64,000 nt of DNA from an uncultured Roseburia sp. (GCA_947038265.1 CAMQVP010000001.1:188968-252967), one strand, 5' to 3'. Numbered from the stretch's first letter, positions 27,601-32,007 are shown. Notes: generated by a model not told the origin, from the sequence alone. Numbers and translations: made by a program.

Positions 27601-27813
27601 TGTATCCCTTAATTCTTAAAAAACACCCAAACGAAATCTTAAGTTTTCTAAAGAATTTAAAAGAAATAAAAAGCCGGAGGGCATTTTTCATACACGCTCC
27701 GGCTTTACACCTGAAAAACGATACGTTATAATCTTTTAAACGGCAAAAAAAACAGAAAGCCGTCTGTGCGCTCAATGGCTTTCTGTTTTTTCTATAAAAA
27801 GGAGTTGACGCAA

Positions 27814-28527
27814 ATGACACAATCCGCCCCCCGTATCTTAATTGTTGATGACAACCCGGAAATCCGTGAAATCCTCCAGATCCTTCTTGGCGGCGAAGGT
27901 TTTCAAATCACGGAAGCCGCTGACGGATGCCATGCCTTAAAAGAATTGGAATCCTGTTATTTTGACTTAATTATACTAGATGTAATGATGCCTGAAATGA
28001 ATGGATATGAAACCTGCCTGAACATACGGGCAAAGAGCAACGCGCCAATTTTATTTTTAAGCGCGCGCACGACCGACAGCGATAAACTTCTTGGTTTTTC
28101 CAGCGGCGGGGACGACTATTTAGAAAAGCCATTTTCCTATCCGGAACTAATTGGCCGCGCGAAAGCCTTAATCCGCCGCTACCACGTCTATCAGGGAAAA
28201 GAGGAAACAAAGCCTTCCTCGATTCTCGAGTTTGGCTCGCTTACCATTGACATGGCTGGGGAGCTTGTTTGTCTTAGCGGCAGACAAATTGAGCTGACTA
28301 CGACAGAATACGAAATGCTTAAACTGCTTGCCCAAAACCCCCATCAGATTTTTTCCGCCCAGAGACTGTATGAAGCCATCTGGAATGAACCATATTATTA
28401 TGGCGCAAACAATACCGTTATGGTGCATATCCGGAATTTACGGTTAAAAATTGAAAAAGATCCGAAAAATCCACTTTACATTAAGACGGCATGGGGAAAG
28501 GGGTATCATTTTGAATCCGCTATGTGA
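27814..28527 (+). CDS. OmpR-family DNA-binding response regulator
   Basis: Receiver domain 'ILIVDDNPEIREIL...DLIILDVMMPEMNG' plus a winged-helix domain 'TAWGKGYHFE'. The start was refined to ATG 27814, after an AAAGGAG RBS. Confidence 0.85.
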   Translation: MTQSAPRILIVDDNPEIREILQILLGGEGFQITEAADGCHALKELESCYFDLIILDVMMPEMNGYETCLNIRAKSNAPILFLSARTTDSDKLLGFSSGGDDYLEKPFSYPELIGRAKALIRRYHVYQGKEETKPSSILEFGSLTIDMAGELVCLSGRQIELTTTEYEMLKLLAQNPHQIFSAQRLYEAIWNEPYYYGANNTVMVHIRNLRLKIEKDPKNPLYIKTAWGKGYHFESAM

Positions 28528-28784
28528 TACCTCTCTTTTATCTCCGCCATGCTCCGTCCACTTTCCCGCAGGCTTAAAATTTCTTCTATCCTATGTACCG
28601 TCCCGACCCTTTCATACCGGCGAGTCAGGTTTTCTTCTTCCTGTTTGTACAAAAGAAGCCCCTCTTGCGTATAATATTTCAGCGTACTGTAACGGCAGCC
28701 TGTAATCCTCACCAACTCGCCGATCGAAACATATTCCGATTCCAAAATTTTTTCCATTGTTCTTTGTCTTGACATTTTAGCCAC
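28506..28784 (-). CDS. MerR-family HTH transcriptional regulator (short)
   Basis: 'YVSIGELVRITGCRYSTLKYYTQEGLL' matches the MerR HTH. Confidence 0.65.
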   Translation of the reverse strand: MAKMSRQRTMEKILESEYVSIGELVRITGCRYSTLKYYTQEGLLLYKQEEENLTRRYERVGTVHRIEEILSLRESGRSMAEIKERYHIADSK

Positions 28785-29678
28785 CTATTGATATGCCGGA
28801 ACAATCGCAACGCCCTGAACCACGCCAACATGAAAACGCCGCGCCGTAGGAAAGATCCGGTAATAAACATTGTCTATTTTCAAAAGATGTTCCTCTCCAT
28901 ATTCCACCGATTCCACGGAATGCCCACGCTCCCTTAAATAATCAATGACGGCGTTTCGCCTGTCTGCCACATCTGTCCCAAAAACAACCATATCAATAAA
29001 AATTGCCTGCCTTCTTTCTAAAAATGGAAAGATTAAATTAATCCCCTGCATATAGGGATTCTGAAAAAACTTCTGTTTCTTTTTCAAAAACCCCTGATAA
29101 ATTGTTTCAAGACCATGAAACTCTGTGTTTAAGAGCGTATAAGCGAACGCATCCTCAGACATACATTTTACCAGCCTTTCCTGAAGATGCATCTGTTCTT
29201 TTACGGAAAAAAAGTCGTATAAACATCCGGTTTCCCTGAAAAGATACAATAAACAGACAGTCTCAACGCTTACTTCTCCATCTTCTAATATTTCAGCGCG
29301 GACGCATTCCGTAATCCTACGGTACTCGGATTCCAAACATTTATATACTTTTAAGGAAGCATCCATCACGTCATAATTAACGTCACAGCCAAGAATATCT
29401 GGAACTTCTGTCAACACGTCCGTCAGGCGGGCTTTCATTTGACTCTCAATTTCCCTTCTCTCAGCTTTATTCAAATTTCGGATTCTTTTTATTTCCTGAA
29501 GCAAACGATCTGAAAGTTCCTCTTTTTTGCCGGAAACTCCTTCCTCAGCCACCTTTTCCAAAAACTCTGCCATTACAATTCCTTTTAAAACAATCTTTTT
29601 TGCGACGGTATTCTGTTTACTGGACAGCCCGTTTAAGCCAACCAAAGCAAACTTCTCCGCCAAAGTATATTCCCGCAT
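28785..29678 (-). CDS. Hypothetical protein, possibly GPP34/GOLPH3-like
   Basis: The N-terminus 'YTLAEKFALVGLNGLS' resembles the GPP34 start. The start was refined to ATG 29678, which has a GGAAGGAG RBS. The family call is weak. Confidence 0.3.
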   Translation of the reverse strand: MREYTLAEKFALVGLNGLSSKQNTVAKKIVLKGIVMAEFLEKVAEEGVSGKKEELSDRLLQEIKRIRNLNKAERREIESQMKARLTDVLTEVPDILGCDVNYDVMDASLKVYKCLESEYRRITECVRAEILEDGEVSVETVCLLYLFRETGCLYDFFSVKEQMHLQERLVKCMSEDAFAYTLLNTEFHGLETIYQGFLKKKQKFFQNPYMQGINLIFPFLERRQAIFIDMVVFGTDVADRRNAVIDYLRERGHSVESVEYGEEHLLKIDNVYYRIFPTARRFHVGVVQGVAIVPAYQ

Positions 29679-29854
29679 CCTGTCATTCTCCTTCCCTAGA
29701 TTTCCCATACATTTGAAATTTATTCTTTGCTTATCACTTAATCCTTTTTGCTTATACTTTTTTGTTTATCACCTTCTATCCTCAGCTCCTCAATATCTTT
29801 TGTTTTCTTGTAAAACTGCTTTTTAATCACTCTCTTTGAGCCGAACTCATTATC

Positions 29855-30050
29855 CACTGCTTATTATTTACGATTACTGCTTACTACTCATTACTTACTG
29901 TTACCGTTTACTTCTTACTTATCTACCGCTTACTACTTACTGCTCATAGCTTACTGCTTACTGCTTACTACTTACTACTTACTACTTACTACTTACTACT
30001 TACTACTTACTACTTACTACTTACCACTTACTACTTACTACTTACTACTT
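29855..30050. repeat. Heptanucleotide microsatellite (CTTACTR)n of about 26 units. The 5' half is degenerate. The 3' units run perfectly from 29950 to 30050, with one CTTACCA variant.
   Basis: Read directly as 'cttactg cttactg cttacta cttacta ...'. The array is intergenic, between the divergent GPP34-like gene and the histidine-kinase gene. Confidence 0.9.
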
Positions 30051-30618
30051 AAAATAACATATAGAATTTTATTTGTCAACTTGATTCTCGTGTCAAAAAA
30101 AGATAAACTTTTGATTATACGCATTGACTGATACAAGATAAAGATAAATTTTAGACTGCGAAAAGCAATAAATTATAGATTGAGAAAAGCATATTGAAGA
30201 AAGTTTTTACAAATGCTATAATGCCAACAGGCAAAAAGATATGACAGTTCCATATGAACGCAGAATGAATCCCCAAACCGTAGCAGCGTACAGTCGGGGG
30301 ATTCTTCTTTTTAAGCTGATAAAGGCTCCCCCTATGCAATTTGTTGCCGCTGCCGTTCCTGTCTAGCCATTTGCTGATGAGGAGGCAGCCAAACCTGCCG
30401 CGGCTGTCACAAGAAATATAAAGAATAACGCCATGCAAACACCGTCCCCCCGTTGCGGGCTTCGGTGAGCAACATATAGATTATGGCATACGATCCGATG
30501 CTCTTTTGCATTTTTCTCAAAAATTTATTTTTAGGGCGGTTGCTGTCTTATGGGTTTTTATTCTTATCTGCTTTCACACTTAAAATATGAATGAAAAAAA
30601 TTTATAAGGATATAAATA

Positions 30619-32007
30619 ATGATAAAAAAATTAAAACATTTAAAAATACAAACCAAACTTCTCCTTCTGATCTTTATTGCCGGGGCTTTTTGTATGCTTT
30701 TATTCCGGTTTCTCTGGCTGCAAAAATGGGATGCATGGTATTTTTTCTCCACTGACGTCACCTCCAGCCCTCCGATTTTTAAAAAGCCGCAAAACGACAT
30801 TTGGCAAAAGATTTATTCAGACGCCATTCACTATAATGTGCCGGAATCCGAAAACGACAAGAAAGCCCAAGAAGCTTTAGAACCTTATTTATCACAGGCA
30901 GATGACTATACGGCTATTTATATTTACGGACTGGAAGACGGGCTCTACCGCGCCGGACAGATTCCACGGATTATGACACAAGAGAATACCTATTCCGCTC
31001 TGTTTCGAACCGGATTGGAATGGACAGACGGACTGGGGGAACAGCGGATAGAACGTCCTGTAGAATTTAAAAACGGATATGCGAATGTGATTGTCGTTTT
31101 TTACCACGCCACAAGTTTTTTTGTGCCCTATACAATATGTTCATTATTACTTTGTATTGCCCTGTTTCTGTTTTTTATACTGTTTTTTGCCAGCCGTAAA
31201 ATTAAAACGATTGCCCGTTTAAAACAGGACATTCTACAGATGGCTTCCGGTGATTTACATACCCCTGTGCGTTATGCCGGAGAAGACGAACTTGGCATTT
31301 TAGGGCAGGAACTCAATAAACTGCGCTGCGCGCTTCAAGAAAATTTTCTGCATGAGCAAGAAATCCACGCCTCTAACCGTGATTTAATTACGGCGCTTTC
31401 CCATGATCTGCGCACGCCGCTCACTATTTTAAAAGGCTATTTAGAAATCGTAAAATTAAGCCCAAAACAAGAGATGCATACAGAATATATCAGCCGCTGT
31501 ATCCAAAAAACTGATGAAATCAAAGAACTGACAGATCGAATGTTTGAATATGCTTATGTGTATGATGAGACCACGCTTACAACAGACAGCATCCATCTGG
31601 CAAGCCTTCCCTGCTCTTTTTTCCGAAACAGTATACAAGAACATACAGAATTTCTGCGTCTTACCGGATTTAATGCAGATCTTCACATATTTGAACTCCC
31701 AGACAGCCCTGTTACTGTCTTGGCTGACGAAACAATGATAAAACGGGTATTCAATAATCTGTTTTCCAATATCATAAAATATGCCGATAAAAAAGAAGCC
31801 GTTGTCATTACGGCTTCCTTAGACGCTTTCCTAACAGTTTCTCTCAAAAACAAAATAAAAACGGATCTCAAACAAATCGAGAGCACACAGATTGGAATGA
31901 AAAGCGTACAAAAAATTATGTCACGGATCGGCGGCTCTGTCTCACATCACGCAGATGGAGAATATTTTTCCGTTACATTAAATTTTCCCTTGGAGAAAAA
32001 CGGATAA
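30619..32007 (+). CDS. Sensor histidine kinase (2 TM, HAMP, HisKA, HATPase_c)
   Basis: N-terminal TM segment, a second TM 'CSLLLCIALFLFFILFF', the H-box 'LSHDLRTPLT', and N/G boxes in the C-terminus. Confidence 0.85.
   Translation: MIKKLKHLKIQTKLLLLIFIAGAFCMLLFRFLWLQKWDAWYFFSTDVTSSPPIFKKPQNDIWQKIYSDAIHYNVPESENDKKAQEALEPYLSQADDYTAIYIYGLEDGLYRAGQIPRIMTQENTYSALFRTGLEWTDGLGEQRIERPVEFKNGYANVIVVFYHATSFFVPYTICSLLLCIALFLFFILFFASRKIKTIARLKQDILQMASGDLHTPVRYAGEDELGILGQELNKLRCALQENFLHEQEIHASNRDLITALSHDLRTPLTILKGYLEIVKLSPKQEMHTEYISRCIQKTDEIKELTDRMFEYAYVYDETTLTTDSIHLASLPCSFFRNSIQEHTEFLRLTGFNADLHIFELPDSPVTVLADETMIKRVFNNLFSNIIKYADKKEAVVITASLDAFLTVSLKNKIKTDLKQIESTQIGMKSVQKIMSRIGGSVSHHADGEYFSVTLNFPLEKNG

Follow-up and report, generated by a model that had tools for sequence, protein, structure and literature searches.

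A hypervariable heptamer array abutting the promoter of a GPP34–MerR gene cassette: a candidate tandem operator in an uncultured Roseburia sp.

Described repeat systems and the heptamer array

Loci at which tandem repeats drive contingency variation have been well studied in a few pathogens (Haemophilus, Neisseria, Campylobacter); from gut Firmicutes, to our knowledge, hardly any have been documented. Where such repeats are known to act at promoters, the repeat unit is usually taken as an arbitrary spacer. Here, a (CTTACTA)n array was analyzed in a 64,000-nucleotide stretch of DNA from an uncultured Roseburia sp. (CAMQVP010000001.1:188968-252967 of assembly GCA_947038265.1; the whole stretch is referred to as the window). 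The array precedes a minus-strand operon for a GPP34-fold protein and a minimal MerR-family protein, and had been regarded in the initial annotation as a candidate phase-variation switch. With a probability of roughly 0.55, we read it as an expanded, slippage-prone operator made of direct repeats, at which the co-transcribed MerR-like repressor would tune the expression of the operon. Since a mobile cassette carries this unit as a conserved cis-element, slippage would then alter the dose of regulator sites and not the geometry of the promoter.

The (ATCTTTC)n arrays of Haemophilus influenzae hmw1A and hmw2A are transcribed in the 5′ leader, differ in copy number both among and within strains, and lower expression in a graded manner as the repeat number rises (PMC12721329); the repeats and a G-rich arm form a long hairpin in the 5′-untranslated region (5′-UTR), which is cut by RNase III. 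Like these, the array of the window is a heptamer array between promoter and coding region and varies in copy number between strains. Judging from the position of the promoter, it is predicted to be transcribed as part of the 5′ leader. In contrast to hmw1A and hmw2A, the leader folds less readily than shuffled sequence and the repeat strand lacks C, and no comparable hairpin was found. The unit is, again unlike in hmw1A and hmw2A, conserved across genera, tied to the gene of a DNA-binding protein, and kept in a fixed register with the −10 element.

Classical MerR proteins (MerR, CueR, SoxR, BmrR) bind a palindrome located in a 19–20-bp spacer between −35 and −10, and possess a long coiled coil and an effector domain. 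The MerR protein studied here shares with these activators the winged-helix-turn-helix (wHTH) DNA-binding fold, whereas the spacer is 16–18 bp long, no dyad is present, the candidate operator lies downstream of the −10 element, and the protein ends after ∼85–89 amino acids (aa). BldC from Streptomyces, a truncated MerR-like protein, forms cooperative head-to-tail filaments on direct repeats of variable number (PMC5859096). The protein encoded in the window (89 aa) is likewise a small MerR-type wHTH protein without coiled-coil and effector domains, and its putative binding sites are likewise direct repeats without dyad, here in numbers from 4 to 28 units. The repeats differ, being AATTxxxx(C) with a period of ∼9 bp for BldC and the 7-bp GTAAGTA here, as do the proteins, since the one studied here has a basic N-terminal arm (MSRQR..K) and TnrA/GlnR as its nearest structures.

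The GTAAGTA/CTTACTA motif was found neither in the searched literature nor in Rfam, and a literal look-up of GTAAGTAGTAAGTA and TAAGTAGTAAGT in the literature returned unrelated papers only. Papers retrieved for GPP34 together with MerR or operon were set aside because they concern pesticidal proteins of Bacillus thuringiensis (Bt) that are named Gpp34 and are unrelated. The combination of contingency variation in a simple sequence repeat with a MerR-like protein that has direct-repeat sites appears not to have been described previously.

Anatomy and copy number of the array

Tandem Repeats Finder (TRF) delimited the array at 29856-30051 (period 7, 28.1 copies, 76% matches, score 206), which is outstanding within the 64-kb window and bears out the ∼26 heptamers annotated initially. 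Its in-register, hypervariable core (29950..30051, minus strand) reads (GTAAGTA)n in gene orientation, with the variants GTAAGTG and GTAAGCA. Parsed by unit, 29950-30047 consists of 14 in-register heptamers (CTTACTG x2, CTTACTA x8, CTTACCA x1, CTTACTA x3), and a partial CTTA follows the 14th. The count of about 14 perfect heptamers made at the outset thus holds for the number of units in register but not for their perfection, as only 11 of the 14 are exact CTTACTA and the longest pure run comprises 8 units (29964-30019). The gene-proximal part (29856..29949, minus strand) has decayed, with substitutions and indels, to ∼12–13 degenerate units (located at 29860-29949), close to the 12 degenerate copies counted before. 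A two-unit probe allowing ≤2 mismatches matched 15 times in the window, always inside the array (0.19 matches are expected from shuffled sequence), and a single CTTACTA occurs only twice elsewhere in the 64 kb. In gene orientation, the repeat strand has no C; the array is therefore without dyad symmetry and could be bound only by a protein that recognizes direct repeats. A coding role was discarded, as stops interrupt every frame of the gene strand, in line with the non-coding nature assigned to the array initially, and the opposite strand, which is open, has neither a start codon nor an ORF.

Through look-up of the flanking proteins, the locus was found in public assemblies from seven independent sources, in which the core occurs as at least six alleles in seven assemblies (because look-ups of exact proteins merge similar places, these allele counts are lower bounds). 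With G, A, and C denoting CTTACTG, CTTACTA, and CTTACCA, the window allele is G2-A8-C1-A3 (14 units), that of L005 is G2-A8-C1-A4 (15 units), and that of L001/L006 is G2-A12-C1-A3 (18 units). An allele of different architecture, G8-CTCACTA-A7 (16 units), was recovered independently from L002/L009 and from L010. Three further alleles are incomplete or only bounded: the contig of L003 ends inside the array (G8-A7...), that of L008 starts inside it (...G≥8-A6), and in L007 a scaffold gap (Ns) lies within an array of more than 22 units. The sources of four of these sequences are JGI 3300051405 (L001), ERZ1755881 (L002), SAMN22252820 (L005), and SAMEA3134459 (L007). Over 9.4 kb (L005) and 8.9 kb (L001/L006), the comparison with the window gave 0 mismatches and a single gap, which is located in the array. 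At least two length changes thus occurred while less than one substitution accumulated in ∼9 kb of flanking sequence. As in contingency loci, a short-unit tract with long pure runs (8 units in the window, 12 in L001) changes its length by whole units among near-identical genomes (14, 15, and 18 units). The array is hence a hypermutable microsatellite in which whole 7-bp units are gained and lost, and the comparison of copy number across strains called for initially bore out the suspected hypermutability. Growth and shrinkage at one end only, which had been proposed along with it, did not hold: promoter-proximal (3 versus 4), central (8 versus 12), and distal G-type (2 versus 8) blocks all vary between strains, whereas the degenerate half and the flanks are identical in all strain copies. 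No constraint on helical phase or unit number was seen among the observed alleles of 14, 15, 16, and 18 units. A scan of metagenomes with the right flank returned only two contigs, one of them a duplicate.

Finished sequences provide independent evidence for slippage of the element. The Priestia megaterium plasmids pBM500 (L164) and punamed9 of strain H2 (L166), both complete records, carry 5 and 8 units, respectively, between identical flanks; the heptamers lie at ∼1750–1800 of the retrieved loci, upstream of a gene annotated as encoding a ‘GPP34 family phosphoprotein’.

At this locus, the array causes breaks or wrong scaffolding in assemblies of metagenomes, and it might be argued that the differences in copy number are artefacts of assembling short metagenomic reads. 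Two contigs end in the array, one scaffold has an N-gap there, and the pure runs of 56–84 bp exceed common k-mer sizes; short-read assemblers can mis-size such perfect runs, so that individual unit counts may be wrong, which also weighs against the tuning proposed here. Alleles differ, however, in their block architecture (G2 versus G8) and in marker units (CTCACTA, CTTACCA), one complex allele stems from two samples (L002/L009 and L010), and the two complete Priestia plasmids differ between the same flanks. The differences in block structure and the finished plasmids are not artefacts of collapse, which renders a purely artefactual origin of the variation extremely improbable. The contig breaks (L003, L008) and the N-gap (L007) at the array, being observations at the level of assemblies, are only suggestive of heterogeneity within populations.

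Promoter register and conservation of the cassette

At its gene-distal end, the array abuts a predicted σ70-type promoter (30051..30079, minus strand), a consensus match of 10/12 plus TG that is composed of a −35 TTGACA (30079-30074), a 17-nt spacer, TG at 30059-30058, and a −10 TATTTT (30056-30051), the final T of which is overlapped by the first TAAGT core. In a consensus scan, this was the only strong promoter match on the minus strand, with nothing comparable between array and gene, and the same layout of promoter and array recurred in ∼20 other loci. The tract lies outside ORFs and not between −35 and −10 but between −10 and the ribosome-binding site (RBS), where it would occupy the discriminator, the transcription start, and ∼200 nt of the predicted 5′ leader; its placement in the regulatory region of the minus-strand operon, as annotated initially, was thereby borne out. 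The remaining predicted leader (29679..29855, minus strand) contains relic-like ATAAGCA/GATAAGC motifs. The first gene probably starts at ATG 29678, because an RBS (GAAGGAG, 29688-29694) is located 9 nt upstream, the protein is called with 297 aa in other assemblies, and homologs start at the equivalent position. From the array it is 148–343 bp to the annotated ATG (29708), in accordance with the distance given before, and 178–373 bp to the likelier start at 29678. A 39-aa ORF predicted by the gene caller at 29738-29857 is probably spurious.

As −35 and −10 both lie beyond the array, the number of units cannot alter their spacing. Whole-unit hypervariability and the intergenic position between divergently oriented genes would also be expected of a phase-variation switch in which the unit number sets promoter spacing or phasing for the divergent operon, the sensor kinase, or both, as had been suggested. 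The single strong promoter of the minus strand has, however, both its hexamers on one side of the array, no promoter-like site of that strand intervenes between array and gene, and the 14-, 15-, 16-, and 18-unit alleles reveal no helical-phase constraint. The kinase begins (30619) 568 bp from the array, which agrees with the spacing initially reported; as that interval contains a promoter of its own, a terminator hairpin, and a small ORF, a link between array and kinase is unlikely. In most other species, moreover, the cassette has no adjacent kinase. Such a switch is, therefore, very unlikely.

The heptamer itself is conserved: as GTAAGTA, its form in gene orientation, it follows the −10 element in 4–11 copies in orthologous cassettes of Lachnospiraceae, Clostridium, Paenibacillus, Priestia plasmids, and Erysipelotrichaceae. 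Homologs found by their protein share one layout, a TTGACA-N16-18-TATAAT-like promoter followed by heptamers and an RBS; they include P0003 (59% identity, 4 units), P0008 (52%, 5–6 units), P0012 (48%, 5 units), P0033 (45%, 4 units), and P0067 (42%, 4 degenerate units), whereas Hungatella hathewayi (5–6 units) and the P. megaterium plasmids (5 and 8 units) were found via the small MerR protein. Altogether, 8/9 species or replicons that have the MerR gene and were reached only from a protein possess heptamers. A scan of GTDB genomes with (CTTACTA)4 added 10 cassettes of the same layout: Clostridium boliviensis, Ca. Galacturonibacter, [Ruminococcus] faecis (L106, the cassette of another species that does not match the window), Ca. 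Cryptoclostridium, one metagenome-assembled genome (MAG) of Erysipelotrichaceae, four Paenibacillus, and one MAG labelled Anaerolineales. Two further cassettes, L034 and L062, are truncated by the end of their contig ahead of the MerR gene; the array of L062 (Ca. Anaerobutyricum stercoris) runs off the contig with at least 15 perfect units. Other large arrays have ∼11 (L052) and ∼10 units (L022).

In a census of 20 loci, 100/144 units were GTAAGTA, and the core TAAGT was invariant. After four −35 boxes had been reassigned by eye, the first TAAGT core was located 28–30 nt after the start of the −35 and ∼1 nt from the end of the −10 in ∼20/22 loci; spacers measured 16–18 bp in 20 loci, and array and RBS are 19–80 nt apart in most species. 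Promoter adjacency is specific for orientation (8/112 arrays versus 0/115 in the control orientation), and all cassettes have their repeats on the sense strand. In the species represented by P0033, the 4-unit block was invariant in 10 strain copies, which deviated from the reference copy at up to 482/2736 bases; an invariant block amid diverged copies, with single-nucleotide polymorphisms in the nearby leader, argues for purifying selection. The interruption pattern RTAAGTA-GTAAGTG-ATAAGTA-GTAAGTA, common to three species, hints at a functional unit of 14 bp. Taken at the level of sequence, the heptamer is a conserved cis-element of the cassette across several Firmicutes families, which is absent from the initial account.

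Across cassettes, the heptamers track the MerR gene; where GPP34-like homologs have no adjacent MerR gene, ∼2 relic units (P0080) or none (P0085) were found. The cassette resides in unrelated neighborhoods and on plasmids and is therefore autonomous. A response regulator and a kinase are neighbors only in the closest species, most of the others having no adjacent kinase. In the species of P0067, an extra 73-aa ORF without Pfam match lies between heptamers and GPP34-like gene (L143, 2275-2496; L144, 1481-1702).

Sense-strand repeats in every cassette and a position mostly downstream of the predicted start also raise the possibility that the transcribed (GUAAGUA)n leader is functional as RNA, either as platform for a triplet-reading protein of the HutP kind or by blocking the RBS, with copy number acting via length, stability, or translation of the leader as in Haemophilus influenzae hmw1A, the repeat of which is transcribed and acts post-transcriptionally (PMC12721329). 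The recognition period of HutP is 7 nt (XAG x3 with 4-nt spacers; PMC2425495), and here UAG recurs every 7 nt. As in HutP and TRAP targets, a purine-rich triplet (UAG/AAG) is repeated at a fixed short period in a leader predicted to be unstructured, and for the arrays that precede terminators in 3′-UTRs of Oscillospirales only a role of the RNA makes sense. Unlike in those systems, the register is tied to promoter DNA: it is locked to the −10 element within ∼1 nt, with the first unit ahead of every plausible start. Further, a wHTH protein of the DNA-binding kind is the sole partner that co-varies, the locus, including the flanking genes, encodes no homolog of HutP or TRAP, and neither a terminator nor an antiterminator was found between array and RBS, a gap of only 19–80 nt in most species. 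A leader hairpin as in hmw was tried and discarded, as the minimum free energy (−28.9 kcal/mol) compares with a mean of −37.2 kcal/mol for shuffled sequences (z = +2.39; 100/100 shuffles fold as well or better). Searches of Rfam yielded chance-level matches only, for the whole window at gathering thresholds and for 29600-30650 at E ≤ 10. An element acting at the level of RNA is thus considered unlikely.

The first gene of the cassette (28785..29678, minus strand) encodes the GPP34-fold protein, 297 aa from the RBS-supported start, or 307 aa when the frame is followed to 29708, up to which it is open. Its label as GPP34, given at the outset, is sound at the level of the fold and probable at that of the family: although the protein itself did not match PF05719 at E ≤ 0.01, 8/31 homologs did (best E-value 1.2e-6), the Priestia homolog is named ‘GPP34 family phosphoprotein’ by the Prokaryotic Genome Annotation Pipeline (PGAP), and the fold is that of GOLPH3/Vps74. 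No NCBIfam family covers the protein, and the family profile had no match among PDB sequences. The sequence cluster to which it belongs also holds 358-aa variants (P0103, P0107), the N-terminal extension of which would enter the leader.

The second gene (28506..28775, minus strand; 89 aa) encodes the minimal MerR-family wHTH protein, the candidate binder of the heptamers. It aligns to positions 2–71, the DNA-binding half, of the profile of ∼127-aa classical MerRs, and in NCBIfam only sub-threshold matches to these were obtained. Residues 1–55 (basic arm MSRQR..K, helix-turn-helix, wing) hardly vary among 46 members of the family, which, at the sequence level, parallels the near-invariant DNA unit. 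The AlphaFold2 model (mean predicted local distance difference test score, pLDDT, 91.5) has the MerR wHTH fold with short helices at its end (56–71 and 76–88), and the best whole-target matches in Foldseek were the minimal MerRs TnrA and GlnR. On the basis of this model, the protein is no demonstrable member of the BldC family. The family of ∼85-aa MerRs comprises more than 800 clusters at 90% identity; in distant cassettes, MerR proteins are 47–65% identical versus 22–43% for the GPP34-like proteins. PADLOC gave no meaningful match to a defence system, no family member was confirmed in viral contigs, one unverified contig (L165) being the only phage record, and a functional name was found for neither protein family.

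Outside the cassette, the heptamer was observed in several settings. In Oscillospirales, arrays follow a consensus promoter upstream of ybaB-recR (L043, 674-722) and of an rfbB-like dehydratase gene (L091, 1282-1309), or are placed after a stop codon and ahead of a terminator hairpin (L014, 5038-5065; L122, 4369-4396); in L091 and L122, a second, GGCCAAGGGC-like repeat adjoins the array. No MerR homolog is encoded within the 8-kb stretches of these four loci. A Bacteroidetes MAG (JADKIH01; L018, L030, L060, L067, L100, L130) and Calothrix parasitica (L023, L038, L076, L089, L117) possess many separate (CTTACTA)n arrays of 4–12 units, some of which, as in L030 and L067, are located at the 5′ end of a long open frame on the CTTACTA strand. 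In these multi-array genomes from outside the Firmicutes, the heptamer could underlie contingency loci that form a set of their own.

In the window, the cassette is flanked by the genes for an OmpR-type response regulator (27766-28527, plus strand), which shares 22 bp with the 3′ end of the MerR gene, and for a HAMP/HisKA kinase (30619-32007, plus strand). Response regulator and kinase genes are on the same strand and split by the oppositely oriented cassette, an arrangement kept in the species with 59% identity (L136–L139), there beside a YfhO-family gene. Between array and kinase, a strong plus-strand promoter (30194-30222; TTGAAG-N17-TATAAT, TG-extended) is followed by a stable terminator hairpin with U-tract (30262-30308; −23.3 kcal/mol, z = −2.66), so that an RNA of ∼80 nt ending in the hairpin and U-tract is predicted. 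Convergent with this promoter, a 23-aa hydrophobic ORF (MALFFIFLVTAAAGLAASSSANG; 30363-30434, minus strand) has a G-rich RBS upstream, and the layout resembles, by analogy, that of type I toxin-antitoxin genes whose 3′ ends overlap. Directly upstream of the promoter, a 24-bp direct repeat (ATAAATTATAGACTGAGAAAAGCA x2, 87% match; 30144-30191) may be the binding site of a regulator. The segment of ∼560 bp that holds the ORF and the promoter is missing from the closest orthologous species, where kinase and operon are separated by 182 bp, and 30080-30618 had no match among plasmids.

A candidate tandem operator for the MerR protein

In the reading put forward here, the operator unit would be (G/A)TAAGT(A/G), beginning at the −10 end of a strong σA-type promoter, and this promoter would drive a mobile two-gene cassette for the GPP34-fold protein and, behind it, the ∼85-aa MerR-type wHTH protein devoid of coiled-coil and effector domains. 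A MerR multimer on the repeats would cover the discriminator, the start, and the early transcribed DNA and, thereby, repress its own operon; we infer binding and repression as well as a phenotypic effect of copy number. The common form of such an operator would be the array of 4–11 units, often interrupted and stable between strains, that most species carry. Pure runs of 8–12 units, as reached in the species of the window, would be its unstable form, units being gained and lost between assemblies much faster than point substitutions accrue, so that operator-unit number and leader length would be heritable but unstable. The predicted outcome is graded tuning of expression and no on/off switch by promoter spacing. 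Expansion beyond the slippage threshold has also arisen independently in Ca. Anaerobutyricum stercoris and in the Priestia plasmids.

Several points, in addition to the possible mis-sizing of perfect runs, weigh against this reading. The promoter is a consensus match only, and a period of 7 bp leaves little room for a wHTH on each unit. The structural neighbors of the MerR protein are dimeric MerRs that bind inverted repeats, and BldC was absent from the top 50 Foldseek matches in the PDB as well as from the phmmer matches in the PDB. The constant orientation of the repeats on the sense strand fits a role at the RNA level equally well. Moreover, (TAGTAAG)n arrays also occur without cassette and MerR gene in Oscillospirales, Bacteroidota, Cyanobacteria, and the candidate phyla radiation (CPR); some genomes of the last three groups have many of them, in part within open frames. 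Conversely, the cassette of L165 (MT836688.1, an unverified ‘Bacteriophage sp.’ from human faeces) is without heptamers; its MerR protein is 60% identical, the promoter runs directly into the RBS, and it is the only MerR-containing exception found.

Even with the premise of an operator granted, its expansion might be neutral. In other species, 4–6 units suffice and do not change from strain to strain; here, decay (degenerate units, indels) affects the gene-proximal half of the array, unit number appears unconstrained, and unrelated lineages show sporadic expansions (L062, at least 15 units; L052, ∼11; L022, ∼10; Priestia, 5 versus 8), all of which would be expected if only the first few promoter-proximal units were the operator and the other 10–25 units had no regulatory consequence. 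The extra units add, however, up to ∼200 nt of leader and many copies of the motif, and their full silence is improbable if the motif binds a cooperative protein. Neutral runaway expansion is, on balance, rather unlikely; as it shares the operator premise with the reading preferred here, the two differ only on whether the variation matters.

Beyond the single locus, the direct-repeat operator may be part of a Firmicutes-wide module in which a minimal MerR protein polymerises on a 7-bp operator abutting the −10 element and the number of repressor sites is hypermutable, which might be termed ‘operator-dosage’ contingency variation; this generalization is put forward only tentatively. The locus offers a natural allelic series, from 4 to more than 22 units, for relating the number of tandem operators to repression, and, for the large, uncharacterised family of ∼85-aa MerRs, a DNA motif and a protein whose pairing can be tested. 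It also provides a route to the study of bacterial proteins with the GPP34 fold. If the array does act as a tandem operator, a bacterial GPP34/GOLPH3-fold protein would be under stochastic, graded control in gut commensals.
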